Shown one piece after another: positions 52 to 15,943 of a stretch of 64,000 nt of DNA. Positions within the stretch are counted from its first letter, which is position 1. Each line of letters opens with the position of its first letter. The position numbers were made by a program, and so were the translations under genes. The DNA is taken from positions 79,590-143,589 of the forward strand of contig CAZWKA010000002.1 in NCBI GenBank assembly GCA_964634875.1. Reading direction: 5' to 3'. The notes below the pieces were generated by a model. That model searched no databases. It saw only the letters and a list, made by a program, of their open reading frames with translations, and had not been told where the DNA came from. This stretch comes from an uncultured Gammaproteobacteria bacterium. GTDB lineage: Bacteria; Patescibacteriota; Patescibacteriia; Magasanikbacterales; GWA2-37-8.

Positions 52-1098
52 CTAATCTTTAACTGCAATAGTTTTTTGATCTTTAGAGCTTTCCTCGAGC
101 GCATACAACGTTCGCAGCACCTGCCTATCTTCATCAAACGAATATGGGTACGGTTGCTTGCCATCAATTGCATCCAAGAAATGCAACATTTCTTCCTGAT
201 ACATATCTTCGGTCGTAACGTAATTCTTTTCCTGCTCGCCCGGCTTCAAACTTATCGTTGTCCATTCTTTGGTACTAGCGCTATATATTTTAATAGTATA
301 ATTTTGCCATTCCCAATCCAAAACGCCATCCGTGCCCAGCAAACGAAGCGTACGGAATGGGGCGCGAGCAATGACATCAATCGATAACGTGCCAACGACA
401 CCGCTCTTAAACTCAACAACTGAAAGATAGCTATCATCAGCTGTCATGTCCAGATCGGAAAGCTTACCCGCAAACCCTGTAACCTTTTTAACGGTTGACC
501 CCAAGAGATCCGTTAACCAAATTAGTTCATAGCCATACATTTCACGGCATGCACCAGTTTCTTTTTGGGCAAAATATACTTGCCGATAATCCTCCCAAGG
601 GTGCCAGTCAGGCAGGTATTGGCCTAAATGATAGTGGAAGGAAAGTACTTTGCCGACTGATCCTGCGACTACTAATTCTTTTATTTTTTTAATCGCTGGG
701 AAATAGCGGAACGTACATGATGGCGCTGCCACGAACGAACTGTCGAGCAACGGCTTTAACTCATCGTACCCCGCATCGCTGGTGGTGACTTCCACAAAAA
801 AATGGCGTTTCTTTTTAGCGGCAGCTAAAAAATAGTCGTGATGCAGATTCGGTGGCGTGGAAATAATGACTACATCGGGGTCAGCTTCCTTTTCGGCCTC
901 ATCGTAGGAAGTAAAAGCACGTACCCCGTGTTTTTCGAGCACCTCCTGGCAACGCTCCGGTGAAAAATCAAAACCAATGATCTGTTCGGGCAAAACTCCG
1001 TGGAAGAGCAGGTTACGGATTCGACGCTTGCCCATGGAGCCAAGGCCGACTTGTAAAAAACGATGGTTAGCGTTTGGCATATTTTTTGAGCTGTTCAA
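52..1098 (-). CDS. Gfo/Idh/MocA-family NAD(P)-dependent sugar oxidoreductase
   Basis: 348-aa ORF with an N-terminal Rossmann dinucleotide-binding motif (VGLGSMGKRR). Length and architecture are typical of Gfo/Idh/MocA enzymes found in nucleotide-sugar pathways. It is translationally coupled to the next ORF. The true start is probably the internal Met at MPNANHRF. Confidence 0.55.
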   Translation of the reverse strand: MNSSKNMPNANHRFLQVGLGSMGKRRIRNLLFHGVLPEQIIGFDFSPERCQEVLEKHGVRAFTSYDEAEKEADPDVVIISTPPNLHHDYFLAAAKKKRHFFVEVTTSDAGYDELKPLLDSSFVAAPSCTFRYFPAIKKIKELVVAGSVGKVLSFHYHLGQYLPDWHPWEDYRQVYFAQKETGACREMYGYELIWLTDLLGSTVKKVTGFAGKLSDLDMTADDSYLSVVEFKSGVVGTLSIDVIARAPFRTLRLLGTDGVLDWEWQNYTIKIYSASTKEWTTISLKPGEQEKNYVTTEDMYQEEMLHFLDAIDGKQPYPYSFDEDRQVLRTLYALEESSKDQKTIAVKD

Positions 1099-2005
1099 TT
1101 AAAACAATGTCGCGGAAACCTTCAGCAAAATTAGAAAAATATTTTTTACGCTCCAGGGCAGCCAAGAAAAAAGCTACTTCGTCGCGGTACATGTCATTGC
1201 GTTCCACGGCTACAGCCTGCACTGTTGTTTTCTGGCCGCGGGTAATCGTGAGGTCAGAATTTTCCGAATCCCAGAGGATGCTCCCCTTTTCGCCAGCAAT
1301 CTCGAGCGAACGGCGGCCCGGACGGCGCACATAATCTTGGTGGACGCTAACCATAACACCTTTTTTAGTAGCGAGCACACTCTCGGCAAAATCTTCAGTC
1401 TCAATCTTGAGTGGAGATATTTTTTTAACGACACAAGCTTTTGCCTCCAATACTTCACCAAGAAGCCAGGACGGATAATTCAAGTCGTGCACTAAATCAA
1501 GCATCACTCCCCCACCACCTTTCGTTTTGGCAGAATAAGTCGTCCGGTAATCACGCTTACGCCATTCGGATAAATCTTGCCCTACAGCGGCGCGGATATA
1601 ATACACTTGGCCAATTTCTTTTTTAGCGAGCAGTTCTTTAATCCTTACAAAGGGAGCAAAAAATTGGAAGTTGTAGCCAACCCACGAACTTATCTTATTT
1701 TTCTCTAGTACTTTTTGGAGTGTTCGAAGCCCGGCTGACGTATGAGAAAGCGGTTTTTCAATAAAGAGGGCCCGAGGTTTAAGCTTAATACACTCCTTAA
1801 TTGTTTGAGCATGTTTACTAGTTTCGTTGGTAATAAAGAGAGCATCGTATGGGCCTTGAGCCACGAACGTTTTCCAGTTCTTTATCAAAGGCACTTCCGG
1901 ACAATCAGTGCGATTTGAAAAAATAGCAATGTCCTCAGTGTGCTTCTTAATATTTTCGTAGTGGCGTGAACCGATCGAACCAAACCCAACGATACCAATT
2001 TTCAT
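1067..2005 (-). CDS. Gfo/Idh/MocA-family oxidoreductase (possible UDP-sugar 3-dehydrogenase, WbpB/WlbA-like)
   Basis: MKIGIVGFGSIGSRH Rossmann motif at the N-terminus. An EKP motif (FIEKPLSHT) is characteristic of Gfo/Idh/MocA enzymes. 312 aa. Confidence 0.6.
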   Translation of the reverse strand: MKIGIVGFGSIGSRHYENIKKHTEDIAIFSNRTDCPEVPLIKNWKTFVAQGPYDALFITNETSKHAQTIKECIKLKPRALFIEKPLSHTSAGLRTLQKVLEKNKISSWVGYNFQFFAPFVRIKELLAKKEIGQVYYIRAAVGQDLSEWRKRDYRTTYSAKTKGGGGVMLDLVHDLNYPSWLLGEVLEAKACVVKKISPLKIETEDFAESVLATKKGVMVSVHQDYVRRPGRRSLEIAGEKGSILWDSENSDLTITRGQKTTVQAVAVERNDMYRDEVAFFLAALERKKYFSNFAEGFRDIVLIEQLKKYAKR

Positions 2006-2008: not shown

Positions 2009-2737
2009 CTAACGTTTAAACTTTTTAAGGCGGGCGGCAATTGCTTTTTTATTTTTGAACAAAACTTCGGCCATGACCCATTCTTCCGGAGTATCAAGAT
2101 CAACCGAACGCCACTTATCGCAGACGACCGCTTTAGTTTTTTTGGTAATAATCACTTTTTCTCTAAGGAGGCTAGCCGTTTTGACAATATACACAAAACA
2201 GCCGTTCAAAAGGTACCCAGCGGGCCAGGCTTGCATATTGGTAGACATTTTTTCACTCCCGTTAACGAGTTTAATATCATTGTCTGGACTAAGATGATAC
2301 AATCGTGGGTGTGTTGGACAGACAGTCAGCACCGTTGTCGCATCGGTCGCCTGGATCATTTTCCAACAGGCGGTAATATCCTGGAGCTCACGGAGTGGCG
2401 AAGTTGTTTGTAAAATAACAATGTACTCAGGGCTGTAATCCTCAATTTGTTTAAGCTTGCTAAGCAGATGCAAAAAACTATCAACCACCTTAGACGTATC
2501 CTGCGCCAATTCAGTAGGGCGCAAAAAAGGCACTTCTGCCCCAGCTCGCTTAGCAATTTTGGCAATACGTGCTGAATCGGTATCAACAATGATACGGGTA
2601 ATAAACGGAGTTTTTTTGGCCTGTTCAATAGCGTACGTAATCAGTGGTTTACCAAAAAATAGCTTGATATTTTTACCCGGAATCCGCTTAGACCCTTCCC
2701 GGGCCGGTATAATACAGAGTACCTCTGGCTGAGCCAT
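2009..2737 (-). CDS. Acylneuraminate/nonulosonate cytidylyltransferase (CMP-sugar synthetase, NeuA/PseF/LegF family)
   Basis: Hallmark N-terminal motif CIIPAREGSKRIPGKNI of the CMP-NeuAc/CMP-Kdo synthetase family. 242 aa. Adjacent to the amidotransferase trio. Confidence 0.7.
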   Translation of the reverse strand: MAQPEVLCIIPAREGSKRIPGKNIKLFFGKPLITYAIEQAKKTPFITRIIVDTDSARIAKIAKRAGAEVPFLRPTELAQDTSKVVDSFLHLLSKLKQIEDYSPEYIVILQTTSPLRELQDITACWKMIQATDATTVLTVCPTHPRLYHLSPDNDIKLVNGSEKMSTNMQAWPAGYLLNGCFVYIVKTASLLREKVIITKKTKAVVCDKWRSVDLDTPEEWVMAEVLFKNKKAIAARLKKFKR

Positions 2738-2742
2738 ATAAT

Positions 2743-3936
2743 TTAGTTAACACGATATTTTAACTTCCATTCATCTCCTACTTTTTCCCACAAGTGCGGC
2801 GAGCGGTAGGAATCAATGACTTCCCAAAAACGCTGTTCAGAAATATTGAGGTACTCCAAAAAATCTTTAAAATACTTTTGAGGGAATTCACCGTCGTACC
2901 GTTTGACCAAAGCAACACCTTCTTCACGGGTTAGGTGGCCAGAGCGGATTTCCATCATCGCATCGCGCGTGGCACGACCCAAACCAAATTTAATGAAGCC
3001 AAGATACCAATGGAAACCATCGGTCTTATCGTCCAGGCTAGCATATTTCGAATAGGTGCCTTCAGAGCGCCCCGTCGCGTTGGTTTCAAAGCCAGTATGT
3101 TTTGAAGCGTAATAAAAATTTTCTTGCGGCACCCATTTTTTGTAATACGACATCCAGTGCATTTGGATCCCCACTTTCTCGATTGCATCGAGGCTAGGGG
3201 GACGATAGAGCTCAAAAGTTTTTTCTTCTACTTCGCCTGGTTCAAAAATGCCACGCTCGAGCCCGGCCTCAACGAGCTTATCAACGCCCGCACCTTTAAA
3301 ATACAAACGCTCCCAGTCTTTGACTGATTCATAGGGCTTGTTGGCGTTTTCCATTGAACCGCCGTATTCAGCTTCACCATTTTCACCGTAGAAAATAAGT
3401 GGGATATTAAATTTAAGGGCGATATGGAAGGCATAGGCCTTTTGACCAAAGGTAAAAGGCTCCCAGGCATCTCCCTTAAGCTCAAAAGCGACCCGGGCAA
3501 GCTTGCGGTGAAGGACACCGTTTTGGAAACAGGTCATCCCGGTAAACCCGGATTGGATGAAATTGTTATAATTCTTAAAACCAATATCTGTATACAAAAA
3601 AGGCGCCCAGGTAACCACCAATGGATGCATCCCATACTTAGTTTTCAGGATGTGGGCGGTATACCCACTATCCTTACCACCGCTCCCGGGCACTACAACG
3701 TCGAAACTACCATCTTTAGATCGGTGCTTATCAAGGAGGGCGACCAATTCGGTTTCACGCTTTTCCCAATCGATGCCATTGTTTTTATACTCAGCATACT
3801 GGCAGGCGGCACAAACACCCACCTCATTGAATGTGATGCGCGGACGCTGGTTTGAAACCACACATTTGGTACAATAAAAAACTTTTTCGGATTGCTCTTT
3901 GAGCTGCTGATCAAGATTAGTAGCCGAAACACTCAT
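2743..3936 (-). CDS. N-acetyl sugar amidotransferase (WbuX/PseA family, PP-loop ATPase)
   Basis: PP-loop motif VVPGSGGKDSGY and a Cys-rich N-terminus (CTKCVVSNQRP...CAAC). The 397-aa size is typical. It lies immediately upstream of HisH/HisF paralogs, as in WbuXYZ and acetamidino-nonulosonate clusters. Confidence 0.65.
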   Translation of the reverse strand: MSVSATNLDQQLKEQSEKVFYCTKCVVSNQRPRITFNEVGVCAACQYAEYKNNGIDWEKRETELVALLDKHRSKDGSFDVVVPGSGGKDSGYTAHILKTKYGMHPLVVTWAPFLYTDIGFKNYNNFIQSGFTGMTCFQNGVLHRKLARVAFELKGDAWEPFTFGQKAYAFHIALKFNIPLIFYGENGEAEYGGSMENANKPYESVKDWERLYFKGAGVDKLVEAGLERGIFEPGEVEEKTFELYRPPSLDAIEKVGIQMHWMSYYKKWVPQENFYYASKHTGFETNATGRSEGTYSKYASLDDKTDGFHWYLGFIKFGLGRATRDAMMEIRSGHLTREEGVALVKRYDGEFPQKYFKDFLEYLNISEQRFWEVIDSYRSPHLWEKVGDEWKLKYRVN

Positions 3937-3940
3937 ACAA

Positions 3941-4582
3941 TTAGAATTTAGAAACTAAGGTACTAAAATTTTTAATAATAGCCAGGCCATCGGTGGCACT
4001 TTTTTCCGGATGGAATTGCGCCCCATACATATTACCAAAACGCACGACTGCCGGGAATGTATAGCCCCCATAAGTTGTGGTTGCCAACACGTTTTTTTCT
4101 TCGGTCGGCTGCATGATATAGGAATGGACAAAATAAGCATACACGCCTGGCTCCAAACCTTCGAGCACTGTATCACTCCACGATACACCCGTCGGCTTAC
4201 TAACCATATTCCAGCCCATGTGGGGCACCTTTTCACTATTCTCAAGCAGCGGAAAGGCAACTACCTGACCAGAAATAAGACCCAGGCCAGGAAAAATTCC
4301 GAGCTCCCGACCTTCGCTAAACAAGAGCTGTGCACCGAGGCAAATACCAAGCACGGGCTTACCAGAAGCTCCAAAAGCCCTCACAACATCAACTAGGCCC
4401 CGGGTAGTAAGTCCGTGCATGCCAGCACCAAACGAACCAACGCCGGGCAACACCAAAGCATCGGCATTCGCAAGGACAGTGGGGTCATCAGAAATTACTG
4501 GAGCAACACCAACTTCCTCAAAAGCCCGTTTTAAGCTTTTAAGGTTGCCGACCCCATAGTCAATAATAACAATACTTTTCAC
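3941..4582 (-). CDS. HisH-like glutamine amidotransferase subunit (WbuY-like; glycan-pathway paralog of imidazole glycerol phosphate synthase)
   Basis: Class I GATase motifs (GICLGAQLL catalytic Cys; HSY...HPEKS). 213 aa. There is a 4-bp overlap with the HisF-like gene. No other his genes are nearby. Confidence 0.7.
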   Translation of the reverse strand: MKSIVIIDYGVGNLKSLKRAFEEVGVAPVISDDPTVLANADALVLPGVGSFGAGMHGLTTRGLVDVVRAFGASGKPVLGICLGAQLLFSEGRELGIFPGLGLISGQVVAFPLLENSEKVPHMGWNMVSKPTGVSWSDTVLEGLEPGVYAYFVHSYIMQPTEEKNVLATTTYGGYTFPAVVRFGNMYGAQFHPEKSATDGLAIIKNFSTLVSKF

Positions 4583-5346
4583 AGGATTCGTACGTTAAGC
4601 CCTTGTTCTTTAAGATACTTTTTAACATCCCCAATGGTATAGTCAGTATAATGGAAAATAGATGAAGCGGCTACCGCATCAACTGCGGCCCTGGAAACAG
4701 CTTCTACCATGGACTCGGGACCGCTCGCGCCACCATGGAGCACGACCGGAACTTGAGCAAAACCAGTGATCTGGCGGGCAAGCTCAAGATCATACCCACG
4801 ACGCGTGCCGTCAAAATCTATTGAAGTCAGAAGAATTTCACCGACCCCTAAGGCCAGACCTTGCTTGATCCACTCTACAACATTCCGCCCGCTCAGCTCA
4901 CGGCCTCCATCGGTATAGGCCTCCCAACCACCGTCGGGCTGGCGCATGGCTTCGACTGATAAGACTATACACTGCGAACCAAACTCAGCGACTGCTTCAC
5001 GCAAAAATTCCGGATGATGGATGGCGTGTGTATTTATAGCCACTTTATCTGCCCCTGCACGCAGGACATTGTTGATATCCTGGATAGTTCGTATACCGCC
5101 GCCGACAGTAATAGGAATAAAAATACCTTCAGTAACAGACGACAACTGGTCAAAATCAATATTGCGCTGGTACAGGCTCGCCACAATATCCATGTATATG
5201 ATTTCATCCGCGCCTTCGTGGTAATAACGCTGCATGAGTGTTTTAGGGTCGCCAACAATACGCAAAGCTTCGGTTTGCACCGGCTTAACGACATGAGGAC
5301 CCTTGATATCAAGACGAGGGATGATGCGGATGTTTTTCATTGGCAA
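4579..5346 (-). CDS. HisF-like cyclase subunit (WbuZ-like)
   Basis: (beta/alpha)8 HisF signatures ([10 protein letters not shown]; VGGGIRT; LHGGASG). 255 aa. It is coupled to the HisH-like gene. Confidence 0.7.
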
Positions 5347-5401
5347 AAGATAGTTACCCGAGGGATTATACTAAGAAACTAAAAAAATTCAAGGTTTTGC
5401 T

Positions 5402-6253
5402 TTATAAAGACCAGGTCAAGAGAATAATACCGCCAATTAAAATACTGGCGATACAAACCTTAAAAACCACATTTATTTCTTTGAAGTAAAATCGTCCTGT
5501 CGCTATTGACCAGAGCACTGCTGAGGAGCGCCGAGCAGCAATGATGACAGAAGCTGGCGCAAACACATACGCAAAGCTATCAACTACTCCAGTCACCCCC
5601 GACAAGAATGCTTGAAAAATAACTATTGGTTGCCGGAGCGAGTGCCACGGTCGCTCTTTAGCGCGGAGCAAACTACCCACAGTGAAATAACCGACTATAC
5701 AGATATAAACGAGCAACTGCTCGGCGACCACTGAATTATAATGGGCGATATCGTATTTAAACAAACTAATCGTTACCGCAGCTAAGACCGTGCTAAGGAC
5801 CGTTAAACCAACTCCTGCGCGTGTTATGGTTTGCCTTGAAAAAACCAACACCAGCGCAACTATAATCACACCGATACCTGCCAGATGATAGGTTGTAAGC
5901 TGGTAACCCAACATCCAGTCAATACCAAGCACAAGTGGAATCGTGCCCACACGAATAAAACTAAAAGTACTACGGTCCGCAATGGTTATGGCCGCCCGTG
6001 AAGTATGTGCCAGCACCATTTCCAAAAATACCCGCAGCGTAAAAAAAGGCAAAGAAGCCGAAGAGAACAAGAACGTTTCATGTTTGATAAGAGCGATAGC
6101 TAGAAAAAATACTGCTGCCGCGGATGATTGGATCCAGCCGAACGTATAAATACTATAGGCTTTTTTACTCACCCGATCTTTTCCAATAGCAGCACTGAGT
6201 TCTTCTAAAAATGTGCTAATTGCGGTTAAGAGAACTCCCCACATAGGTACCAT
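5402..6253 (-). CDS. EamA/DMT-superfamily membrane transporter
   Basis: About 10 predicted hydrophobic helices arranged as two repeated halves. 283 aa. No soluble domains. Confidence 0.5.
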   Translation of the reverse strand: MVPMWGVLLTAISTFLEELSAAIGKDRVSKKAYSIYTFGWIQSSAAAVFFLAIALIKHETFLFSSASLPFFTLRVFLEMVLAHTSRAAITIADRSTFSFIRVGTIPLVLGIDWMLGYQLTTYHLAGIGVIIVALVLVFSRQTITRAGVGLTVLSTVLAAVTISLFKYDIAHYNSVVAEQLLVYICIVGYFTVGSLLRAKERPWHSLRQPIVIFQAFLSGVTGVVDSFAYVFAPASVIIAARRSSAVLWSIATGRFYFKEINVVFKVCIASILIGGIILLTWSL

Positions 6254-6276
6254 GAGTAATTGGAAAAATCCTGACG

Positions 6277-7251
6277 CTAGGTATTCTTGGCCTGATATGC
6301 CGCTTCGAGTACCATTAATTTTTTGTAATTTTCCGGGCTGGCCAGGGTTTTTATCTCTGCAATTTTACTTTCCTTTGCTTTGGCCGACTCTGCATTAGGT
6401 AGTCGTTCACGTACCAAGATCTGGGCCATTTCAGCGGTGACCGGACGGTTTAAAAATTTCTGCAATTTTTTAACAAGCTGGTTAGGATTAGCTAGTATTT
6501 CTTCGTACCTAACCGAAAGCATTTTGGCTTTCTGGCTTGGTGATAATTTTTTGTAACTTGCGCGGCTACGCTCCATCAAGGTTGTAATCGACATAATCAC
6601 TCGGTCCATTTCACTGGCCTTGGCATAACGCTTGGTTTGGCCGGCTATATACCACGGGTACGGGCCGCTCGCGTCTTTAAAAGGAATGATAAATAATTTA
6701 GGGTCGTCCCCGAGGCGCTTAGCGAGCCCACGCTTATACCATGATGCAACGAGCTCTACCGGGCTACGTTCCAAACTAACGACTTTGATACCTGGAAATG
6801 TTTCTAAGTATACTTTAATATTTGGCATTAACTCATGCAAAATAAAAAAACTATACGCCTTACTTTTATAAAAACGTTTGAGCGCCTCGTCACCATCCGG
6901 CTCTTCACCGCGGTGCAAATATTTTTCAGGTTCCGGAACATTATAAATCGAAGATTTGTCACCCCGGCGATGGTTAAGGGTGCGGCCAATAGCCATTTCA
7001 TAACAATGTGTATCGATCTCACATCGTAAAAGCTCTTTCGCAACTTCTTTGGTTAAAAAACCACTTTCCAATAAAAAAGGGATGTGTTCTAAAAGGCCAT
7101 GATATTGAACAGGCTCAATCCCGGACAACCCATTTAAAATATTAGCTAACAAAAATTTTCCAGAGCGAGAAATTCCCTCAACGATAAGCAGGTCTTTTAC
7201 TAACGGAGTGCGTGATCCAAGTCTTAACGACACCTTTTTTTTTGCGGGCAT
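6277..7251 (-). CDS. PAPS-dependent sulfotransferase family protein
   Basis: P-loop-like 5'-PSB region (GISRSGKFLLANIL) and a 3'-PB-like motif (ERSPVELVASWY, resembling RxPxDxxxSxY). It is flanked by cysQ, cysC and sat. 324 aa. Confidence 0.5.
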   Translation of the reverse strand: MPAKKKVSLRLGSRTPLVKDLLIVEGISRSGKFLLANILNGLSGIEPVQYHGLLEHIPFLLESGFLTKEVAKELLRCEIDTHCYEMAIGRTLNHRRGDKSSIYNVPEPEKYLHRGEEPDGDEALKRFYKSKAYSFFILHELMPNIKVYLETFPGIKVVSLERSPVELVASWYKRGLAKRLGDDPKLFIIPFKDASGPYPWYIAGQTKRYAKASEMDRVIMSITTLMERSRASYKKLSPSQKAKMLSVRYEEILANPNQLVKKLQKFLNRPVTAEMAQILVRERLPNAESAKAKESKIAEIKTLASPENYKKLMVLEAAYQAKNT

Positions 7252-7256
7252 ACAAG

Positions 7257-8093
7257 TTAACTGCTTAAAGAATAAAAATGACGGATCGCTTCAATAAGCC
7301 GATTATGCAAAACACCATTAGTCACCACAATCCCCTCTGGATGTTTGACTACGGCCGTATTATACAACAAAGGTTGGCCGCGCGTATCGGTTATAGCACC
7401 ACCAGCTTCTGTAATCAAGCAATGTCCAGCGCTGGTATCCCACTGGCTAATATGACGCGTAAAAGAAAAATAAATATCAGCACTACCACGTGCTAATTCA
7501 GCTATTTTAAGTCCGCAGCTGCCGGTTTGTTTCTCACTTCCTAATCCCAATGTTCCTAAAAATTCTTTTTCTGCAGCGCTTAAGTGGTTCCGGCTTACCA
7601 ATGCCTCAGCTACATTAAAATCGTCGGTCTTACTTACCCCTATTTTACTTAGTTTATTATCTTGAACAAGAAAAGCGCCTCTTCCTTTTTCTGCTATAAA
7701 ATAACGTTCGCGGGCTGGCTGGTACACAATACCAATAGCGGGAATACCATTATCAACTAAACCAATAAGCACGGTAAATTCGTCATTATGGTCGATAAAA
7801 TCCTGCGTACCATCGATTGGGTCGACAATCCAGACCTTCTCAGCATTAAGACGATCTGCTGAGTCAGCCGTTTCTTCGGATAAAATTGGATAACCGGAAG
7901 TATTTAGAATTTCTGAAATTACCTGGTTACTTGCCACATCAGCTTCGGTTACCGGGCCTTCATTGTTTTCTTTTTCACGCACTGAAAAATCACGGGCGTA
8001 TATTTCCCGGATGCGGATGCCCGCAGCTTCCGCCGCAGTAAGAGCGAGCTGGCAATCCGGGCTGAATTGTCCTTTAAAAGCCTCAGAAATCAT
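7257..8093 (-). CDS. cysQ: 3'(2'),5'-bisphosphate nucleotidase CysQ (inositol monophosphatase family; PAP phosphatase)
   Basis: IMPase-family metal-binding motifs (EE...WIVDPIDGT; WD). 278 aa. There is a 4-bp overlap with cysC. Confidence 0.7.
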   Translation of the reverse strand: MISEAFKGQFSPDCQLALTAAEAAGIRIREIYARDFSVREKENNEGPVTEADVASNQVISEILNTSGYPILSEETADSADRLNAEKVWIVDPIDGTQDFIDHNDEFTVLIGLVDNGIPAIGIVYQPARERYFIAEKGRGAFLVQDNKLSKIGVSKTDDFNVAEALVSRNHLSAAEKEFLGTLGLGSEKQTGSCGLKIAELARGSADIYFSFTRHISQWDTSAGHCLITEAGGAITDTRGQPLLYNTAVVKHPEGIVVTNGVLHNRLIEAIRHFYSLSS

Positions 8094-8617
8094 AGGCGAC
8101 CACTGGCTTCCAAAAAAGCCAGTAATTTTTTAATACTTTCGTCCGGGCTTTCGCCCGTAGTTTTAATTTCAATTTCAGGATTGAGCGGTGCTTCATAAGG
8201 ATTACTAACACTTACTCCAATAAGATTTGTCAGTTCGCCTGACGCGGCTTTCGCGTACAGCCCTTTAGTGTCACGGGCAACGCATTCTTCGAGAGGGCAG
8301 TTAACATACACTTCAACAAAATCAGGGCCTATTTTTTGGCGGGCGGCTTGCCGGTCTTCGCGGTAGGGAGAAATAATGGGTGTAATAATAAAATCATATT
8401 CTACCACATGCCCAACAGCGAGCTCGGCAATCAGGCGGTTATTCTCACGGATATCTTCACGGGTGAAACCCAGGTGTTTATGAAGCGTGTCACGCACGGT
8501 GTCACCGTCAAAAAGAATTACTTTTTTCCCTATGGCCATTAATTTTTCTTTTAGGCCATTTGCAATCGTTGACTTGCCAGAACCGCTTAACCCTGTAAAC
8601 CAAAGTACTGTTGCCAT
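8090..8617 (-). CDS. cysC: Adenylyl-sulfate kinase (APS kinase)
   Basis: Walker A motif LWFTGLSGSGKST and an LDGDTVR-type motif (LFDGDTVRDTL). 175 aa, canonical CysC length. Confidence 0.85.
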   Translation of the reverse strand: MATVLWFTGLSGSGKSTIANGLKEKLMAIGKKVILFDGDTVRDTLHKHLGFTREDIRENNRLIAELAVGHVVEYDFIITPIISPYREDRQAARQKIGPDFVEVYVNCPLEECVARDTKGLYAKAASGELTNLIGVSVSNPYEAPLNPEIEIKTTGESPDESIKKLLAFLEASGRL

Positions 8618-8621
8618 ATAT

Positions 8622-9953
8622 TTATTTATTAGTATCTTGGACAGCCACTTGGTTGGTTTCCTCAGGATTGGTAGACAATAATGGCCAACCTTTGCTTAGA
8701 ACAAATCGGAGCCATAAGCCAGCCGCCTGCGAAGTTACTATGGCTGTAATTACCAGGGTCGTATAAAAAGCAGCACTAATTATGCCTGCTTCATAGGCAA
8801 CGCTAGCGAGCACGATACCAGGACCCCCTCGGGCATTAGTGGTAATGGCTAAGTTTAGAATATCCAATTTTTTGAATCCAGCCAGTCGAGCCGCAAACCC
8901 AACCGAGACGAGGGCAATCAACGATGAACCCAATAAAAAAACAACCAATAATCCAAAAGAAAAATCGCGGTCAAATACTAAACGATACCCTACCAGGGCA
9001 AAGTAAATAGGGATAAAAATAGCGAAAGAAAACTTACTGATGGCGTCCAAGGCATCGGCATAATGCTCCCGCTGTCCTCCAATAATACCACCCGATATCC
9101 CAAATCCAGCTAAGAAAGCTGCAAATACCAAATTGACTTCTAGATAGGCCGCGAGGCCGACATACGCAAATAAAATAAAAAGCACATAGGCCGGCACGGA
9201 AGCTTTATAGAGAATGTTCCAGCGTACGCTACGCAAACTTCTCATCAACCTAGGCATGAGAACCAACGCTGACGCCATGTAGATCGCTGTAATAATGATG
9301 TGAGCTGTGGTGGATCCAACCACACTACCTTCGACAAAGTCATTCGCCTTAGTCAGCGCAGCAGCCACTGCCAGCACGCCCCAAAGAGCAATATCTTCTA
9401 AAACCGCAGAACCTAGTATGAGGCTGGCAAAACGAGTGTGTAATATATTCAAATCGTGGAAAATGCGGGAAATAACTGGAATAGAAGTTACCGCTACCGC
9501 ACTCGCGAGAATTAATAAGGCAGCATTCTTAACTCCAGCTGCACCCACCAACGGATCAAGAGGAATTACAGAGAATAAACCCAGTGCCAAAACGAGAAAA
9601 AAGGGTAAGGGTGTACCAATACCAAGCAACCAAGCGGTTTCACGGCGATTCTCTTTAGAAAGCAATCGACGGACCTGGCTCCCTGAAATAAACATGAGAA
9701 GGAGCACACCGAGCCAGTAAATAAATCCAAGGACTATTGAAGTTTTCTGCCCGAGGGCAGGGTTTTGAAAGAGAAAGCTAAACACAGTTGGGGCAAAACG
9801 GCCGAGCACAAAAGGACCCAAGAGAATACCGGCGAGTATTTCTCCTACCAGACGAGGTTGGTGTAACCGTTCAAAGATATAACCCAGAACGTGCACTGCA
9901 GCCACAAATATACCGAGCGTCAGGACAAATAAACCAACTTCTACTTCAGACAT
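8622..9953 (-). CDS. Cation:proton antiporter (Na+/H+ exchanger, CPA family)
   Basis: 443-aa polytopic membrane protein. The N-terminus is typical of the Na_H_Exchanger family (GEILAGILLGP). It sits between cysC and sat on the same strand. Confidence 0.6.
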   Translation of the reverse strand: MSEVEVGLFVLTLGIFVAAVHVLGYIFERLHQPRLVGEILAGILLGPFVLGRFAPTVFSFLFQNPALGQKTSIVLGFIYWLGVLLLMFISGSQVRRLLSKENRRETAWLLGIGTPLPFFLVLALGLFSVIPLDPLVGAAGVKNAALLILASAVAVTSIPVISRIFHDLNILHTRFASLILGSAVLEDIALWGVLAVAAALTKANDFVEGSVVGSTTAHIIITAIYMASALVLMPRLMRSLRSVRWNILYKASVPAYVLFILFAYVGLAAYLEVNLVFAAFLAGFGISGGIIGGQREHYADALDAISKFSFAIFIPIYFALVGYRLVFDRDFSFGLLVVFLLGSSLIALVSVGFAARLAGFKKLDILNLAITTNARGGPGIVLASVAYEAGIISAAFYTTLVITAIVTSQAAGLWLRFVLSKGWPLLSTNPEETNQVAVQDTNK

Positions 9954-10000
9954 AAGGACTATTTATTAAACGAGTAAGCATACTGCTTTTACAGGTAAAG

Positions 10001-12256
10001 CTACTCGTCTTTTACAAAGACCTCTTCTCCTTGCTTTAGCGCATCAACGATCATCTGCGAAATTTCCGGACGCATAAACCATTCCGGAGGCAACTCACCT
10101 TTTTCAAGCATCTTGCGCGCTTCTGTTCCACTGATCTGCATCTTCTCTTCTTCAGAGTGCTCCTTGTCCCCCGCCTCATGGACGTGAGACTGTAATTTTT
10201 TGGAGTAAAAAATCTGGTTAAATCGGACCGGGACGATTCCTAAGTCAGGGAATTGGTCAAAAATCTCATGCGAAGCAGTTGGAGCATAGAAGGCACCAAC
10301 ACCCGTGTGGTCGCGGCCAATGATAAAATGGCTGCACCCAAAATTCTTACGACAAAGCGCCGTAAAAATAGCTTCCTTGGGTCCAGCATAGCGCGAGAAG
10401 GTGCTATACGCCGCAAAAACAGCTTTATTCTTCGGATAAAAATACTGAGACATCATTTCGTAAGCGCGGATTATATATGGTGCGTTAAAGTCCCCGGCTT
10501 TTTTCTTACCAATTACCGGATGGACGAATAAACCATCACACGCTTCCTGTTCTAGGGCTTTAAGCTGGATGAATTCATGGCTGCGATGGATGACGTTGCG
10601 GGTATGAAAACCAACCACCCGGCTCCAACCGCGCTCTTCAAACAAGCGGCGAACTTGGGCTGGGGTCAGCTCGTATTCCTGTGTAGGAGTTTTGCGGCGC
10701 TCAATAAGATCAATCTTCCCCGCTACAAATATTGGTTTCATGTTGCGAACTCGCCGAACTCCCGGATGGTCGGCGCTATTTGTCCCATACAGCTTGGTCG
10801 CAAAATTTTCTAAGTCAAAAGCATAGGTTTCGCTTACGCGAAGGAGTGCGCGATCGCTACCATCAACACCTTTCAAAAGCACTGTATCACCAATTGAAAT
10901 ATTTTTTGCTTCTTCTTCGGAAATATCCAGAACAATCGGAATCGGCCAAATTATACCGCTTGACAGGTGCATTGTGTCGAGGACGCTGGTGACATCGGCT
11001 TTGCCCATAAACCCTTCGAGTGGGCTGAAGGTACCAACTCCCAGCTGTTCAACATCCATATCCAGGTTTTCATCAAGCTGAATGGTGGTCATTTTTTCGA
11101 GCTCTTCTGCAACGGGTTTTTCACGTAACTGACGGTTCACGAGTTTTCCACCGTGCGGCAGTACCAACGACGACGACGACGTAAAGTCAGTGAGATACCC
11201 TTCTGGTACGAGCAGTGTTTCTACTTGTTCAAAAAGCTTCAACGATTTAGTATCTACTGTCTCGTCAACGTGACGGATAACCTTGTTCATCACATTTACT
11301 GTCTCCATAGGGAATTTCCCAATAGCCGTTTCAGCCGACAGAGCTAAGCCGCTCGCACCATCGAGTAACGTATTCACAATATCACAAATTTCCGCGCGGG
11401 TTGGTTTGGGTTTTTCCACCATTGTTTCAAGCAGGTTGGTAGCCACATACACGGGCTTACTCAGCTTGCGAGCTCGCTCCATGATAACTTTTTGCGTAAA
11501 AGGTATCCGTTCAATACGGATTTCTTTGCTCAGGTCTCCACGGTCGATGAGGATCGCGTCGCTGGCCGCAATAATCTCGTCTAGATTCTCTAGGGCATCA
11601 GTACATTCAATTTTGGAAATAATTTGCATCCGATTTTCCGAGGCCCGCGCAACCTCCTTGACTGAAGCCGCATTTCTCATAAATGAAGCGGCCACATGTC
11701 CAATCCCCTCTTTAAGACCAAGTGCAATCGATTGATAATCTTTTTCGGTGAGCGGAGGTAATTTAAAAACTTTGTTGGAACCGGAATCGATAACTACGCC
11801 TTTATTACGCCCGATCGAGCCGGCAGTGATTGCGGTAGCAGTAATATATCCTTCGGCACAGGTGGAGGTATCTGACACTTTTAAAACCAGCGTGCCAAAG
11901 TCTATATATACCAAATCCCCCGGACTTAACTGTTCAATGATCGAACCAGGTTTGAGGGTTAACACATCTTTGTTGCCCAGAATTTGGTCCGTAGTTAATT
12001 TAATCAAAGCATTTTCCTCTAAAAAAATTTCTTTCTCACCCAGGTCACCGGTACGGATCTGTGACCCTTCAGTATCGATAATAAAGGGAATACCGACTTT
12101 TTTTGCGAGTGCGATAAAGTAATGCAAGTCTTCCACGGTGGAATGCGACATATTGACGCGGACGAAAGCAACGCCCTTGGCCTTCAAAAAACGGAGGTCT
12201 TCTTCGGTGCGTGTCGCTGGACCAAGTGTGGCGATGATCTGAGTTTTTTGTTGCAT
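10001..12256 (-). CDS. sat: Fusion protein: pyruvate-kinase-like catalytic domain (N-terminal) fused to ATP sulfurylase / sulfate adenylyltransferase (C-terminal)
   Basis: Residues 1 to about 335 carry pyruvate kinase barrel and B-domain motifs (IIATLGPAT, RVNMSHS, DTEGSQIRTG, ISKIE, DRGDLS, ATNLLETM, PTRAE, SAETAIGKFP). The pyruvate kinase C-terminal allosteric domain is absent. From about residue 345 there is a full ATP sulfurylase (HTRNVIHRSHE, AGPKEAIFTALCRKNFGCSHFIIGRDHTGVG). Confidence 0.8.
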   Translation of the reverse strand: MQQKTQIIATLGPATRTEEDLRFLKAKGVAFVRVNMSHSTVEDLHYFIALAKKVGIPFIIDTEGSQIRTGDLGEKEIFLEENALIKLTTDQILGNKDVLTLKPGSIIEQLSPGDLVYIDFGTLVLKVSDTSTCAEGYITATAITAGSIGRNKGVVIDSGSNKVFKLPPLTEKDYQSIALGLKEGIGHVAASFMRNAASVKEVARASENRMQIISKIECTDALENLDEIIAASDAILIDRGDLSKEIRIERIPFTQKVIMERARKLSKPVYVATNLLETMVEKPKPTRAEICDIVNTLLDGASGLALSAETAIGKFPMETVNVMNKVIRHVDETVDTKSLKLFEQVETLLVPEGYLTDFTSSSSLVLPHGGKLVNRQLREKPVAEELEKMTTIQLDENLDMDVEQLGVGTFSPLEGFMGKADVTSVLDTMHLSSGIIWPIPIVLDISEEEAKNISIGDTVLLKGVDGSDRALLRVSETYAFDLENFATKLYGTNSADHPGVRRVRNMKPIFVAGKIDLIERRKTPTQEYELTPAQVRRLFEERGWSRVVGFHTRNVIHRSHEFIQLKALEQEACDGLFVHPVIGKKKAGDFNAPYIIRAYEMMSQYFYPKNKAVFAAYSTFSRYAGPKEAIFTALCRKNFGCSHFIIGRDHTGVGAFYAPTASHEIFDQFPDLGIVPVRFNQIFYSKKLQSHVHEAGDKEHSEEEKMQISGTEARKMLEKGELPPEWFMRPEISQMIVDALKQGEEVFVKDE

Positions 12257-12266
12257 AAAAAATGAA

Positions 12267-13799
12267 TTAGACTTGAGTCAAACCAACCTTTTTGGCCAGG
12301 AGGTCGACAATCGGGATAAGCTGGGATTTTTTTGCACCCAACACTTGCGAGCCGCCTTCAGTGTCCCAAATTAGACTAAGATCAAGGTCAACACTTTCGG
12401 CATATATCGCCGCGATGAAATTAACTAATTCATCATGATTATACTTAAAATTACGAAGCTGTTCTTTGACTAGGTCGGGCAAAAGATTGATGTCGCTACA
12501 TGTCTTAACCATGGACAGGCGATTATAAAAAACTTTACCAAACACAATGGATGGTTTTTTACACATGGCTGCTTCAAAACCAGCGGTGCCAGTTACAGCA
12601 AGCACCAGCTTGCTTTGAGCAATAATATCGAGGCTATTTTCGACCGAATTAAGCAAGCGGACGTTGGGTAATTTTTTGATTTTGGCGTAAAAATCGCGGG
12701 TGCGCTTACCCATCATCCGCGGATGGTCTTTAACATATAATTTATAGGTAGCAGGTAATGATTGCGAAGCCTGCTCTACAAGCCATGCTTGATCTCGATA
12801 AAAGGGCGCGAGGAGCATGGGCAGTGCTTCTGGTTCGCTGTGAAGTGAAAAATAGGCATACACATCACCAGCAGCAGGCTTATCATAAAAATCACTATAA
12901 CCACGCAGTACCCGGACTTTATTTTTTACCTTATCAATGACATGGTGCCAGGGCTTGATAGTGCTATAATCGCTCGAATGCGGATTCGTGAAATATTCAT
13001 AAAACAAATGGCCGAGCCAATAGACGGAATGAAAAATTTTACCCGGATTTAAAAAGGCAAAATGCTTGCGCCGCATAGCTACCGAATTGGCATACGTATT
13101 GGCCGCTGCAGAGGCAGTGCCGTAGTAAGTTGGCCGTTCTTGGAACGAGGTAAGATATTTAACCGACTGCTCATTAAAAGCCTGGTCGCTCGGCAAAAAC
13201 TGTCCCGATGAAAAACGTTGAAAAGCCGCTTCAAGGTCAGGGAATTCATCGTATTTTTCAGTGATACTGTACTTATTTTCCACTCGCGGACAGAAGAACA
13301 TGGTCGTTTTAATGCCCTTCTTTCTGGCAATATGGAACAAGAGCATACTGCTTAAATTGGAAACGACAGAAAAAAACACAAAATCGGGCTTTTCTTCATC
13401 GAGAAAACGGATAATTGCTTTGGCAGTCACCTGAACAATGCGCAACAAGTCCTCGTGCGAATACTGCGGGGTATCCGATGGAAAACCGCGGAGTAAAAGA
13501 CCGTAGCGTAAAATCCGGTCCATATTGATGTACGGCCAGAGTGTCGGCAAACCATATTCTTTTTCGAGCCAATCAATATAAGCCGTATCGAGTTTTTCAT
13601 TTTTATATTCAGCGTAAATATCCTCTTCTAGAATAAGCTTGGTGTAGGTAAAGTCTGTTTGGTTCTGTAAAAATTCAAAGCTGGAACGTAAATTAACCAG
13701 GCCACAAAAATCAGTAATGCCATAGTGCTCCCTTAAAATAAGCGCCATGGAATGACCGATAAGCGCAAAACGACGTTGCAAGAAAAAACACGCTTTCAT
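12267..13799 (-). CDS. Capsule-polysaccharide-biosynthesis family protein (KpsC/KpsS-like, putative glycosyl/Kdo-type transferase)
   Basis: 510-aa soluble protein with no TM segments. Its size and features resemble the Capsule_synth family. The assignment is tentative and made by resemblance only. Confidence 0.35.
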   Translation of the reverse strand: MKACFFLQRRFALIGHSMALILREHYGITDFCGLVNLRSSFEFLQNQTDFTYTKLILEEDIYAEYKNEKLDTAYIDWLEKEYGLPTLWPYINMDRILRYGLLLRGFPSDTPQYSHEDLLRIVQVTAKAIIRFLDEEKPDFVFFSVVSNLSSMLLFHIARKKGIKTTMFFCPRVENKYSITEKYDEFPDLEAAFQRFSSGQFLPSDQAFNEQSVKYLTSFQERPTYYGTASAAANTYANSVAMRRKHFAFLNPGKIFHSVYWLGHLFYEYFTNPHSSDYSTIKPWHHVIDKVKNKVRVLRGYSDFYDKPAAGDVYAYFSLHSEPEALPMLLAPFYRDQAWLVEQASQSLPATYKLYVKDHPRMMGKRTRDFYAKIKKLPNVRLLNSVENSLDIIAQSKLVLAVTGTAGFEAAMCKKPSIVFGKVFYNRLSMVKTCSDINLLPDLVKEQLRNFKYNHDELVNFIAAIYAESVDLDLSLIWDTEGGSQVLGAKKSQLIPIVDLLAKKVGLTQV

Positions 13800-13802
13800 A
13801 TC

Positions 13803-15839
13803 TTAAGGGTTAAGCTTACCTTTAAAGACAAAATAGTAGACCGACCTACCGTCACCACGGGGATACAGAAGGAGCGATTGGTAACCCAAGCGTTCGAAAA
13901 GCTGCCACAGTGCTGTTCCTTTGTCACCCGCATCGGTTGGATAAAATTCTAAAAGAATGCCTAGATTTGTAGCTGCAGCTAAAATAGCCTCAGCCGCCAA
14001 CAAACTTTCTGCTTCAGCACCACCAATATCAAACTTAAGTAGGCGCGGCGTTTGGCCATGTTCTACCACCCAGCCAGGGATAGTAACGGTCGGCACTTGG
14101 ATCGTGTCTGCCCCTTCCTCAATACGACCTGAAGTTGCTCCAGTGTGTTTGCGAAAACTGACAATCCCGGCCGCTCCCGCCATTGCAGCACCAACCACAC
14201 TTACATTTTTAAGATTGTTAAGCTTAATGTTTTCTTCAATAAGAGCAAGGTTCACTGGCTCTGGTTCGAAAATAACTACCTGGGCCAAAGGGTTGGCAAG
14301 CCCCGCCACCAGGCCATACATGCCGTTATAGCCACCCACGTCAAAAATGACGCCATTACCACTTTCAATTGCTTGTTTTTTCCAGAGCGACAAGAGAACG
14401 CGTTCGTGCTTGCCGGCAGCAACATGCTGGGCAAACAAATGGTGGTACGGATGACTGGAAGACAATTTGCAAACAAGTCCATCTACTATAAATTCGTAGT
14501 ACTGACGGCCCATTGCTCGGGCAAAGTAATAACTGCTTAAAAATGAAGCTTTTTTGCTGTAATGGCGATACGCCCAGCCCCAATTAATACCGGCCAGGAC
14601 CCGTGCTTTTTTAACGACGGAGCTCAGAGCATTTTTTTGAGGCTTCTCCTTTGAAACCAGTGCTTTCATTTTTTCATGGAGCTCGGTTATGCGATGCTGG
14701 TAGTTCATTTCGTCACTATTAATACGCGCGACGACGCCAGCGGATAAACGGCTGCGGAGTTCTGGGTCAGCACCAAGCTGTTCAATCTTTCTGGCTAAAT
14801 CATCCGTATCCCCCTCAGCAAAGTATAAGGCACCTCCTCCAGCGACCCACTCAAGACCCCCGCCACCCGGTAAAATATTGGGCAAACCAAACACCATCGC
14901 CGTTGAAAGCGCCATGGAGGTCATATCCCGTCGCCAGGCGGCCTGGATAAAAATATCAGCTTCCTTTAAGCGTTGGTGTAACTCTTCTTTAGTCATCCAG
15001 CCGGTAAATTGAACATACGGAGCCAAACCGAGATGCTCAACCAGGGCATGGATCGCTTCTTCTTCAGGGCCGCTTCCGCCCAATACTAATTTAAAATCAT
15101 TCTTATTTTTAATTTTTGAAAATGCCGTAACTAACAAATCAAAGCCTTTTCCCGGGGCCATGCGGCTCGAGTAAAACAAGGTCAACGGGCCGCTTTTTTT
15201 GTTACGGAGACGATAGGTATCTTCAGCAACACCAGTAGCCTGCATGAGGCCGTGGTAATCATACGGATCACCAAGCACAACACTCTTACTATCTGTAACC
15301 ATGCCAAAATCCCGATAGCTATCTCGGAGGACGGGATTAGTAAAAGCATGGAGGTCAATAGCATTAGCGACATGCATGAGACCATACTGCTCGATGGCCG
15401 CCCGGGTTTTCTTTTTTAACGCTTTCAGGAAACTATCTTCAGGCACCGCCGACAAAAGTGACGAAACATTTTCAGGCCAGGCAGTTAGTTCACGGTTATA
15501 CAAAGCAACTACCGGAACTTCACCGCACAGCAAACGGTAAAGGCCGGCACCGTACAAAAAAATATGCCCATCAACATGGAAGATATCCGCCTCTTTCGCA
15601 TATTTTTCTAAGAGAGAATATACTTTAGTCTGGATCGAAAGCTGGCGAGCAACATTTAAATTTTCTTCAATGACTTTATACGGTACAGGTTCCAGAAAAC
15701 AATTAAGGTTAGAAAAAGCCGTAACAATCGTAACCGTATTACCAAAACTCTGTAGCGTGCGGGCCAGGATATCTATTTCACCGGTCGAGCCGCCGCCAAG
15801 TTTAAAATTAAGCTTGCTCGTAATAAAAACAATCCTCAT
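13803..15839 (-). CDS. Bifunctional GT4 glycosyltransferase (N-terminal) / FkbM-family SAM methyltransferase (C-terminal)
   Basis: The N-terminal roughly 400 aa form a GT-B/GT4 fold (MRIVFITSKL...GGSG; EAxxxG-like region FIQAAWRRDMTSMALSTAMVFGLP). The C-terminal roughly 230 aa carry FkbM methyltransferase motifs (VIFDVGGYNGMYG; LLKFDIGGAE). Confidence 0.65.
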   Translation of the reverse strand: MRIVFITSKLNFKLGGGSTGEIDILARTLQSFGNTVTIVTAFSNLNCFLEPVPYKVIEENLNVARQLSIQTKVYSLLEKYAKEADIFHVDGHIFLYGAGLYRLLCGEVPVVALYNRELTAWPENVSSLLSAVPEDSFLKALKKKTRAAIEQYGLMHVANAIDLHAFTNPVLRDSYRDFGMVTDSKSVVLGDPYDYHGLMQATGVAEDTYRLRNKKSGPLTLFYSSRMAPGKGFDLLVTAFSKIKNKNDFKLVLGGSGPEEEAIHALVEHLGLAPYVQFTGWMTKEELHQRLKEADIFIQAAWRRDMTSMALSTAMVFGLPNILPGGGGLEWVAGGGALYFAEGDTDDLARKIEQLGADPELRSRLSAGVVARINSDEMNYQHRITELHEKMKALVSKEKPQKNALSSVVKKARVLAGINWGWAYRHYSKKASFLSSYYFARAMGRQYYEFIVDGLVCKLSSSHPYHHLFAQHVAAGKHERVLLSLWKKQAIESGNGVIFDVGGYNGMYGLVAGLANPLAQVVIFEPEPVNLALIEENIKLNNLKNVSVVGAAMAGAAGIVSFRKHTGATSGRIEEGADTIQVPTVTIPGWVVEHGQTPRLLKFDIGGAEAESLLAAEAILAAATNLGILLEFYPTDAGDKGTALWQLFERLGYQSLLLYPRGDGRSVYYFVFKGKLNP

Positions 15840-15910
15840 AACCTGAGCATTATATTATGGAGCGATAGTATCATAAAGAGTAAAAAAAGGCAATGAAGTA
15901 AGCCATTTTA

Positions 15911-15940
15911 TTGACAGCGGCTGGTTTTCCATAGTACCAT
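15911..15940 (+). promoter_or_regulatory. Sigma70-like promoter (TTGACA-N18-TACCAT) for the FdtA-like/DegT genes
   Basis: TTGACA at 15911-15916 and TACCAT at 15935-15940, in a divergent intergenic region. Confidence 0.4.
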
Positions 15941-15943
15941 AAT

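Follow-up and report, generated by a model that had tools for sequence, protein, structure and literature searches.

A 64,000-nucleotide stretch of contig CAZWKA010000002.1 (GenBank assembly GCA_964634875.1, positions 79,590 to 143,589), hereafter the window, carries five genes on its minus strand (12256..6277) that we read as a self-contained sulfation cassette within a surface-glycan operon. In order of transcription, they encode an ATP sulfurylase (Sat) fused to a pyruvate kinase (PK) barrel, a CPA2-type membrane protein, adenosine 5'-phosphosulfate (APS) kinase (CysC), a CysQ-like nucleotidase, and a 324-residue sulfotransferase. Reading from the genes alone, we give this interpretation a probability of about 0.72, and we consider it probable that the cassette serves the sulfation of a glycan or glycan precursor. 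Profile matches confirm the Sat, CysC, and sulfotransferase genes, and point to a CysQ-like gene, where an earlier note on this DNA (the original prediction) had placed Sat, CysC, CysQ, and a sulfotransferase (6277..12256). That note had described consecutive, coupled genes and had listed the sulfotransferase before CysQ. The coupling of cysC to cysQ holds, as the stop/start junction reads ggtcgcctATGAtttct, a genuine ATGA overlap, but the CPA2 gene separates Sat from CysC, the genes at the other core junctions stand 4, 5, and 47 nucleotides apart, and the sulfotransferase gene comes last. The "fused Sat" of the prediction is likewise real, although its partner had been overlooked and is neither CysC nor a pyrophosphatase.

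In the 751-residue fusion, a complete A+B barrel of pyruvate kinase is followed by a linker of about 25 residues and then by PUA_2 and ATP-sulfurylase domains. The C-terminal PK domain, responsible for allostery and tetramerization, is missing, and the PUA-Sat portion occupies its place. The PK half aligns end to end (residues 1 to 336) with Geobacillus stearothermophilus pyruvate kinase 2e28 (200 bits). It falls below the cut-offs of models for the full-length enzyme (TIGR01064, 297.9 against 306.4; NF004491, 306 against 432), in the case of TIGR01064 because the C domain is missing. The Sat half exceeds both of its cut-offs (NF003166, 436 bits against 387; TIGR00339, 357 against 323). Its best relative in the PDB is the ATP sulfurylase of Methanothermococcus thermolithotrophicus (8a8d; E value of 6e-101), and no solved chain among its PDB matches contains a PK module. 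An AlphaFold model of the whole fusion has a pLDDT of 91.2 and a pTM of 0.89, and confidence drops (to about 69) in the linker alone, suggesting that the two parts hold a defined inter-domain arrangement.

More than 120 full-length relatives with 57 to 84% identity are present in the protein database. Among the source organisms are Patescibacteria, Parcubacteria, and Paceibacterota of the candidate phyla radiation (CPR) and Nanoarchaeota and Woesearchaeota of the DPANN archaea, and the proteins are named just "pyruvate kinase" or "sulfate adenylyltransferase." We aligned 120 of these fusions. The PK residues R33, N35, S37, D61, T62, K215, E217, D241, T273, and E309 are each invariant in 119 to 120 of the 120, and the set checked (the catalytic Lys, the Mg ligands Glu and Asp, the proton-donor Thr, and the Arg-Asn-Ser and Asp-Thr of the phosphoenolpyruvate [PEP] and K+ site) is fully present. 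The Sat motifs HTRNVIHRSHE (HxxH, H557 and H560) and GRDHTG (G647-R-D-H650) are similarly invariant or nearly so (119 to 120 of 120). Conservation is 0.74 for PK and 0.77 for Sat; the PK half is thus conserved like the Sat half.

The fusion occurs in more than one topology. The PK-Sat form of the window is joined by a PK-Sat-CysC form, found at five related loci (L004, L005, L007, L009, and L018) and in many database entries, and by a third arrangement in which a separate Sat is followed by a Pfam-confirmed fusion of PK to APS kinase (L019, Elusimicrobia; L022, Oligoflexia). Independent fusions of PK to Sat and to CysC are classic evidence of a functional link. A metagenome scan with the PK-Sat query returned seven fusion loci only, the remaining matches being ordinary pyruvate kinases. 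One 1,019-residue relative (P0117) combines a sugar nucleotidyltransferase domain (PF00483/PF12804) with PK, PUA_2, and ATP-sulfurylase domains, a further fusion that links PK-Sat with sugar activation.

The 324-residue protein matches the sulfotransferase family PF00685 above its cut-off (33.6 bits against 22), as the original prediction had proposed; PF13469 falls just short (25.6 against 27), and no NCBIfam model matched. It has no transmembrane segment and is predicted to be a cytoplasmic enzyme of the type that uses 3'-phosphoadenosine 5'-phosphosulfate (PAPS). Both PAPS-binding motifs are conserved in an alignment of 38 family sequences. In the 5'-phosphosulfate-binding motif (5'-PSB), SRSGKF, residues G26, R29, G31, K32, and F33 are invariant, and an AlphaFold model (pLDDT of 93.7) shows the corresponding strand (21 to 26), loop (S28-R29-S30-G31-K32), and helix (32 to 39). 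In the 3'-phosphate-binding motif (3'-PB), RsPveLvaSW, residues R162, P164, S170, and W171 are invariant, and HMMER aligns the family version, qrsPvdLvysWy, with the SULT1C3 3'-PB ARNPKDCLVSYY (RNPKDCLVSYY in SULT enzymes). H139 and E140 are also invariant and are candidates for the catalytic base. The family is sizeable and uncharacterized, with 111 cluster representatives in a word-indexed search and 520 representatives at an E value of 1e-30 or below in an exhaustive one. Most of the 111 carry a precomputed PF00685 and/or PF13469 match. Where a name is given, it is "sulfotransferase domain-containing protein," and the source is Patescibacteria, Minisyncoccia, or Collierbacteria.

CysC passes its equivalog model (TIGR00455, 183.6 bits against 138.7). 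In Parcubacteria GW2011_GWC2_45_7 (L033, 12258-13058; also L034, 4137-4937), the gene directly after PK-Sat and ahead of a 395-residue sulfotransferase encodes an APS kinase with a PQ-loop/MtN3 (SemiSWEET-like) membrane domain at its N terminus. This protein may link a transporter to PAPS synthesis, a hint that transport and activation can be coupled.

To place the cassette in context, we scanned one genome per GTDB species for the sulfotransferase, which yielded 28 loci, and searched their six-frame open reading frames with the window proteins within a distance limit of 10 kb. The loci span at least six phyla: Patescibacteria (Yanofsky- and Falkowbacteria, among others), DPANN (Woesearchaeota and Micrarchaeota), Gemmatimonadota, Elusimicrobiota, Omnitrophota, and Bdellovibrionota/Oligoflexia. 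PK and Sat lie within that distance in 20 of the 28, mostly directly upstream, and WbuX does so in 19; several of the loci that have no PK+Sat or WbuX are short contigs. The acetamidino-sugar amidotransferase trio WbuX/HisH/WbuZ, whose genes are also adjacent in the window, abuts or overlaps the sulfotransferase gene in about 11 of the 28 (e.g., L002, L004 to L006, L008, L016, L018, L020, L024, and L025). A KpsC-like gene lies beside the cassette in five CPR loci (L002, L005, L007, L008, and L011), and the CysQ-like gene is a less constant partner (L002, L017, L022, and L026). Locus L002 reproduces the window gene for gene except for a 283-residue membrane protein, in the order glycosyltransferase-methyltransferase, KpsC-like, PK-Sat, CPA2, CysC, CysQ, sulfotransferase, WbuZ, HisH, WbuX. 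In Elusimicrobia (L019, 6098-10954), two sulfotransferase paralogues flank an oppositely oriented WbuX/HisH/WbuZ trio.

In every PK-Sat locus sampled independently of this sulfotransferase, CysC is a neighbor of PK-Sat or part of the fusion. Many of these loci encode sulfotransferases of other families (395 residues in Parcubacteria GW2011 locus L033; 285 residues in L035) and some CysQ-like, NeuB, AsnB, PMT_2, and GT2 genes. cysH and cysI never occur in them, and no PAPS/APS or sulfite reductase gene is among the called genes of L030 to L038. PK-Sat thus marks sulfation cassettes in general, whereas the link to the acetamidino trio is particular to the 324-residue sulfotransferase family, since the PK-Sat loci L030 to L035 lack WbuXYZ. 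In two of these loci (L030, 8748-13714, Woesearchaeota; L031, 8701-13773, CPR), a Sulfatase-family (PF00884) gene stands directly upstream of PK-Sat, and a protein of 278 or 304 residues lies between PK-Sat and CysC. It has no sulfotransferase match (a weak HAD match, or nothing); it may modify the acceptor in another way or be a sulfotransferase that escapes recognition. The cassette is common in CPR and DPANN metagenomes and is therefore not peculiar to this one genome.

The sugar genes of the window point to candidate acceptors. WbuX and HisH exceed their cut-offs (342 bits against 203 and 213 against 105, respectively). Evidence for nonulosonate chemistry consists of a PseF-like cytidylyltransferase, a LegC/PseC-type aminotransferase, and a KpsC-like transferase of 510 residues with a profile match to KpsC 6mgb (E value of 4e-8). 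The nonulosonate and acetamidino-sugar setting described in the original prediction is accordingly present in part: the trio and these three genes are there, but the PseF-like protein scores below its model (TIGR03584, 160.5 against 205.7), and no NeuB-type synthase is found in the window.

The fold of the sulfotransferase bears on the acceptor as well. With the model as query, the top Foldseek matches in the PDB are PAPS sulfotransferases only: tyrosylprotein sulfotransferase TPST2 (E value of 5e-8), followed by the CurM sulfotransferase, Stf1, and Stf9. That the TPSTs are the nearest solved folds is the only pointer to protein-tyrosine sulfation, and with it to an enzyme that acts on a non-glycan acceptor (a tyrosine of a secreted or surface protein as for RaxST and TPST, a lipid, or a small metabolite) and stands in a glycan locus incidentally. 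Identity to the TPSTs is only 13 to 16%, however, with a TM-score of about 0.5, so that the acceptor cannot be read from the fold. Further, the abutment of the gene on WbuX/HisH/WbuZ recurs across phyla within sugar operons, and no candidate peptide-substrate gene is conserved alongside it. We therefore regard a non-glycan acceptor as improbable. A second possibility, to which we give only a slim chance, is that sulfate is a leaving group for an elimination, substitution, or rearrangement, as in CurM/OLS and LGS1, so that the mature glycan would carry none. A dedicated PAPS supply with clearance of the by-product 3'-phosphoadenosine 5'-phosphate (PAP) fits either stable or transient sulfation, but no elimination partner (thioesterase-like or lyase) is conserved beside the sulfotransferase, and WbuX-type PP-loop enzymes themselves use ATP to activate the acetamido group. 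Least likely of all is ordinary assimilation, with PAPS passing to PAPS and sulfite reductases encoded elsewhere and the PK fusion acting as a housekeeping glycolytic enzyme: the PAPS-dependent route does open with Sat and CysC, published CPR/DPANN surveys count sat as a sulfur-cycle gene (PMC12153355), and the sequence inspected here for reductases, the 64-kb window plus 3 kb, is part of a contig of at least 183 kb, but the same operon carries a sulfotransferase and a PAP phosphatase, every neighborhood is one of glycan biosynthesis, and cysH/I/J are missing from the window, its left flank, and all of the approximately 40 related loci examined.

We thus return to sulfation of a glycan or its precursor, the interpretation also favored in the original prediction and supported by the motifs, the 28-genome context, and the missing reductases. 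The prediction would have fallen had the sulfotransferase failed to match by profile or structure, and it matches by both. That prediction had reported no assimilatory reduction genes, and we likewise find no cysH/I/J/D/N among window open reading frames of at least 150 residues or in about 3 kb past the left edge (L072). The co-occurrence of the sulfotransferase family with Sat/CysC and sugar-modification genes across 28 genomes adds a comparative basis. The prediction had overlooked that Sat is fused to PK, that a CPA2 gene belongs to the cassette, and that WbuXYZ is closely linked to it.

In the pathway that we propose, the Sat half, with its motifs intact, would convert ATP and sulfate to APS and pyrophosphate (PPi), and CysC, by homology, would convert APS to PAPS with release of ADP. 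The equilibrium of the Sat reaction is very unfavorable, lying far toward ATP and sulfate, and APS kinase becomes trapped in a dead-end E-ADP-APS complex; local removal of ADP and resupply of ATP would therefore pull the pathway. The PK half could recharge the CysC-derived ADP to ATP with PEP, drawing the unfavorable Sat and CysC steps forward and clearing inhibitory ADP, so that the net reaction would be ATP + PEP + sulfate to PAPS + PPi + pyruvate. In vitro PAPS-generating systems are supplied with pyruvate kinase and PEP for ATP regeneration, an arrangement that the PK-Sat fusion mirrors. PK-CysC fusions would suit the recharging of ADP especially well, and coupling to PEP would favor fermentative CPR and DPANN cells of low energy charge. 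We give the role of the PK module as an ATP-regenerating partner about an even chance.

The cytoplasmic sulfotransferase, as its fold and motifs suggest, would then use PAPS to sulfate a sugar precursor. The leading candidate acceptor is the acetamidino sugar of WbuX/HisH/WbuZ, with the amidino group present or yet to come, although we hold this identification at slightly less than even odds. This sugar may be a CMP-activated nonulosonate of the pseudaminic or legionaminic acid (Pse/Leg) type, given that PseF-like, LegC/PseC-type, and KpsC-like (CMP-ulosonate-using) genes are present. The resulting residue would pair a permanently positive amidinium with a negative sulfate. From homology and operon position, the CysQ-like enzyme would hydrolyze PAP to AMP and Pi; the CPA2 protein might bring in sulfate or balance ions; and the glycosyltransferases, GT-C enzymes, and Wzy_C-type proteins of the window would assemble and export the glycan.

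Several observations weigh against this interpretation. Both the sulfation itself and the identity of the acceptor are what we infer from bioinformatics. The canonical DTKGPEIR of pyruvate kinase is replaced in this family by DTEGSQIR, so that cation dependence or substrate could differ, and the PK-Sat of the window may simply be the sole pyruvate kinase of the cell. The cassette includes neither a pyrophosphatase nor a recognized sulfate permease. The best NCBIfam model for the CysQ-like protein, TIGR01331 CysQ, scores below its cut-off (190.2 against 228.8; the runner-up is HisN at 132.7), and the WbuZ assignment is similarly uncertain (TIGR03572, 262 against 299.7, near HisF at 283). In the CPA2 protein, an LED motif aligns with IDD of the Na+/H+ antiporter NapA, keeping an acidic E-D pair at the D-D site in TM5, which fits cation transport. 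Unrelated genes surround three of four sampled close CPA2 homologues, and only one of the four adjoins PK-Sat.

A role for the CPA2 protein in sulfate uptake is attractive because the cassette holds no known permease, but we consider sulfate import by this protein unlikely. It passes PF00999 (130.7 bits against 26.2) and falls below TIGR00932 (99 against 238), and its best PDB match is NapA (5bz2; E value of 8e-13). Homologues adjoin PK-Sat in L002, L015, L022 (483 bits), L031/L032, and L035. We rejected the notion of a sulfation-specific CPA2 subfamily as stated, given the single PK-Sat neighbor among the four sampled homologues; the link is recurrent and non-exclusive. The closest relatives, at 62 to 76% identity (among P0233 to P0351), are from Planctomycetes/Planctomycetaceae, Rhodopirellula, Anaerolineales, Deltaproteobacteria, and metagenomes. 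No other protein of the cassette comes near this identity across phyla, and either a recent horizontal transfer or very strong constraint is suggested.

The cassette lies within a single co-directional, packed run of minus-strand genes that starts at 15839 and ends at 52; neighboring genes are never more than about 55 nucleotides apart, and ATGA overlaps occur (Table 1). Directly after the sulfotransferase, the 283-residue membrane protein has about six to eight hydrophobic segments. We rejected it as a conserved part of the system (e.g., a DMT-type transporter of PAPS or sugar), as it has no Pfam or NCBIfam match and no internal repeat, and no homologue occurs in the 28 related loci, making it unique to the window.

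Table 1. Genes of the minus-strand run, in order of transcription, with the two parts of the PK-Sat fusion listed separately
Feature	Coordinates	Strand	Support
GT4 glycosyltransferase fused to FkbM methyltransferase	15839..13803	-	Pfam
KpsC-like (ulosonic-acid transferase-like), 510 aa	13799..12267	-	PF05159 34.5 bits; NF046086 BFO_1060 glycosyltransferase
PK-Sat fusion, 751 aa	12256..10001	-	PF00224 257 bits, PF14306 PUA_2 152 bits, PF01747 259 bits
Pyruvate-kinase A+B barrel part, residues 1-340	12256..11237	-	PF00224 257 bits
PUA-like + ATP-sulfurylase (Sat) part, residues ~363-751	11170..10001	-	PF14306, PF01747
Na_H_Exchanger/CPA2 membrane protein, 443 aa, ~12-13 transmembrane segments	9953..8622	-	PF00999 130.7 bits
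APS kinase CysC, 175 aa	8617..8090	-	PF01583 169 bits; TIGR00455 183.6 bits
CysQ-like 3'(2'),5'-bisphosphate nucleotidase (IMPase family), 278 aa	8093..7257	-	PF00459 185 bits; TIGR01331 190.2 bits
Sulfotransferase, 324 aa	7251..6277	-	PF00685 33.6 bits
Multi-pass membrane protein, 283 aa	6253..5402	-	No family match
WbuZ/HisF-like	5346..4579	-	TIGR03572 262 bits
HisH	4582..3941	-	TIGR01855 213 bits
WbuX	3936..2743	-	TIGR03573 342 bits
PseF-like CMP-ulosonic-acid cytidylyltransferase	2737..2009	-	PF02348 91.6 bits; TIGR03584 160.5 bits
Two GFO/MocA oxidoreductases	2005..52	-	Family matches

Outside this run, the window continues as a glycan locus, with the LegC/PseC-type aminotransferase, an MBOAT protein, several S-adenosylmethionine-dependent methyltransferases, an AsnB-type amidotransferase, and enzymes of the GDP-mannose dehydratase type. 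Where the original prediction spoke of dozens of glycosyltransferases, we count about 16 glycosyltransferase-type genes (GT2, GT4, and PMT_2/GT-C), plus two Wzy_C+TPR proteins. No recognized sulfate permease is present in the window, and Rfam and tRNA scans of it gave no matches. A promoter/terminator scan of 2500 to 17500 was uninformative, as sites were rarer than in shuffled sequence; one -35/-10-like site lies at 5392..5365, ahead of wbuZ. There is no sign that the cassette is an assembly chimera, because its GC content (0.42 to 0.48 over 4 to 16 kb) resembles that of its surroundings.

Other features of the window lie apart from the cassette. The MBOAT acyltransferase (17638-19086, plus strand) is followed by a gene with a weak AlgX-like SGNH match (19105-20325, plus strand; E value of 1e-3), and the two resemble a glycan O-acetylation pair. 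The Wzy_C proteins (45875-47926 and 49870-52137, minus strand) are paralogues, each with an O-antigen-ligase domain and C-terminal TPR repeats. A 1,241-residue open reading frame (52267-55992, minus strand) without a Pfam family may encode a large surface protein; GC skew is positive in its region and nowhere else in the window. A gene for an ECF-type sigma-70 factor (57570-58151, minus strand) and the DUF5667 gene that follows it (56220-57563, minus strand) are likely a sigma/anti-sigma pair. The sigma factor also marks the window as bacterial; together with the names of the best database matches, it is the basis for a probable assignment to Patescibacteria. GC content steps from 0.41 (58 to 60 kb) to 0.53-0.55 (60001-64000), which could reflect foreign DNA inserted as an island or a join made in assembly. 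A truncated S-adenosylmethionine synthetase (63390-63998) is the sole Pfam match among the open reading frames of this segment; those at 60930-61613 and at 61869-62654, the latter overlapping a 310-residue frame on the opposite strand, have no Pfam family.

Taken together, the findings allow a broader proposal, which we put forward tentatively. PK-Sat and PK-Sat-CysC may be PAPS synthases driven by PEP, a class not described before, that make sulfate activation affordable for low-energy, small-genome CPR and DPANN cells and some others. The 324-residue sulfotransferase family, with WbuXYZ, may give the episymbiont surface a previously unknown zwitterionic sugar with sulfate and amidinium groups, which could be a nonulosonate, and the CPA2 protein or the SemiSWEET-like CysC might be sulfate importers. 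Surface chemistry is central to the host attachment of ultrasmall episymbionts, and a sugar bearing both sulfate and amidinium would, if real, be biologically relevant there; a self-recharging PAPS synthase would likewise help enzymatic sulfation. Three things from the locus lend themselves to testing: the conserved sulfotransferase family, for which a class of acceptor is probable; the PK-sulfurylase fusion found in nature; and the candidate sulfate transporters. In environmental consortia, sulfated glycoconjugates have been seen chemically, and the bacterial sulfotransferases responsible are mostly unidentified (PMC10483923). CPR and DPANN surveys enter "sat" under the sulfur cycle and say no more of it (PMC12153355); from the present locus, it seems that these lineages often use Sat for the sulfation of surface glycans instead. 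The literature that we searched held no description of the PK-Sat(-CysC) architecture, of the 324-residue sulfotransferase family and its pairing with WbuXYZ, of glycan sulfation in CPR or DPANN, or of sulfated nonulosonates. The original prediction had called a sulfated surface glycan unusual for this type of organism, which holds for that literature but not for the genomes, given how common the cassette is.

Dedicated PAPS synthesis beside carbohydrate sulfotransferases is already known, as are fused PAPS synthases. One close parallel is rhizobial NodPQ with NodH (and LpsS) of Sinorhizobium meliloti, which act in the sulfation of Nod factor and lipopolysaccharide; as in the window, dedicated activation genes cluster with a carbohydrate sulfotransferase, and PAPS is meant for glycoconjugate sulfation rather than assimilation. 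NodPQ, however, is a GTPase-coupled sulfurylase of the CysDN type fused to APS kinase, whereas the window encodes a homo-oligomeric Sat fused to a PK barrel, a sulfotransferase of another family, and CysQ and CPA2 in the operon, in a CPR-like host. PAPS synthases (metazoan PAPSS1/2, Aquifex 2gks, and fungal Sat with an APS-kinase-like domain) also fuse Sat to an enzyme of the same pathway. The PK-Sat-CysC variants contain a full Sat-APS kinase unit, and 2gks is clearly related in sequence (E value of 8e-69), but we found no PK module in solved or described fusions of this kind; the extra module of the window is no pathway step, its proposed role being ATP regeneration. With pyruvate kinases of the PykF/PykA type, the fusion shares the A+B domains and all catalytic and metal ligands, differing in its PUA-Sat portion in place of the C domain, in DTEGSQIR for DTKGPEIR, and in its equivalog scores below cut-off. 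Mycobacterial Stf0, Stf1, and Stf9 with CysQ (sulfolipid and glycolipid sulfation) are a known case of carbohydrate sulfotransferases with CysQ, but they share only 12 to 14% identity with the sulfotransferase described here, and their genes form no single cassette and include no PK fusion. Finally, the WbuX/WbuY/WbuZ, AglX/Y/Z, and PseA-type systems of O-antigens, archaeal N-glycans, and Pse/Leg sugars have the same amidotransferase trio beside a cytidylyltransferase and a LegC/PseC-type aminotransferase; we know of no described system that pairs this trio with a sulfotransferase, a pairing that is conserved here in at least six phyla.

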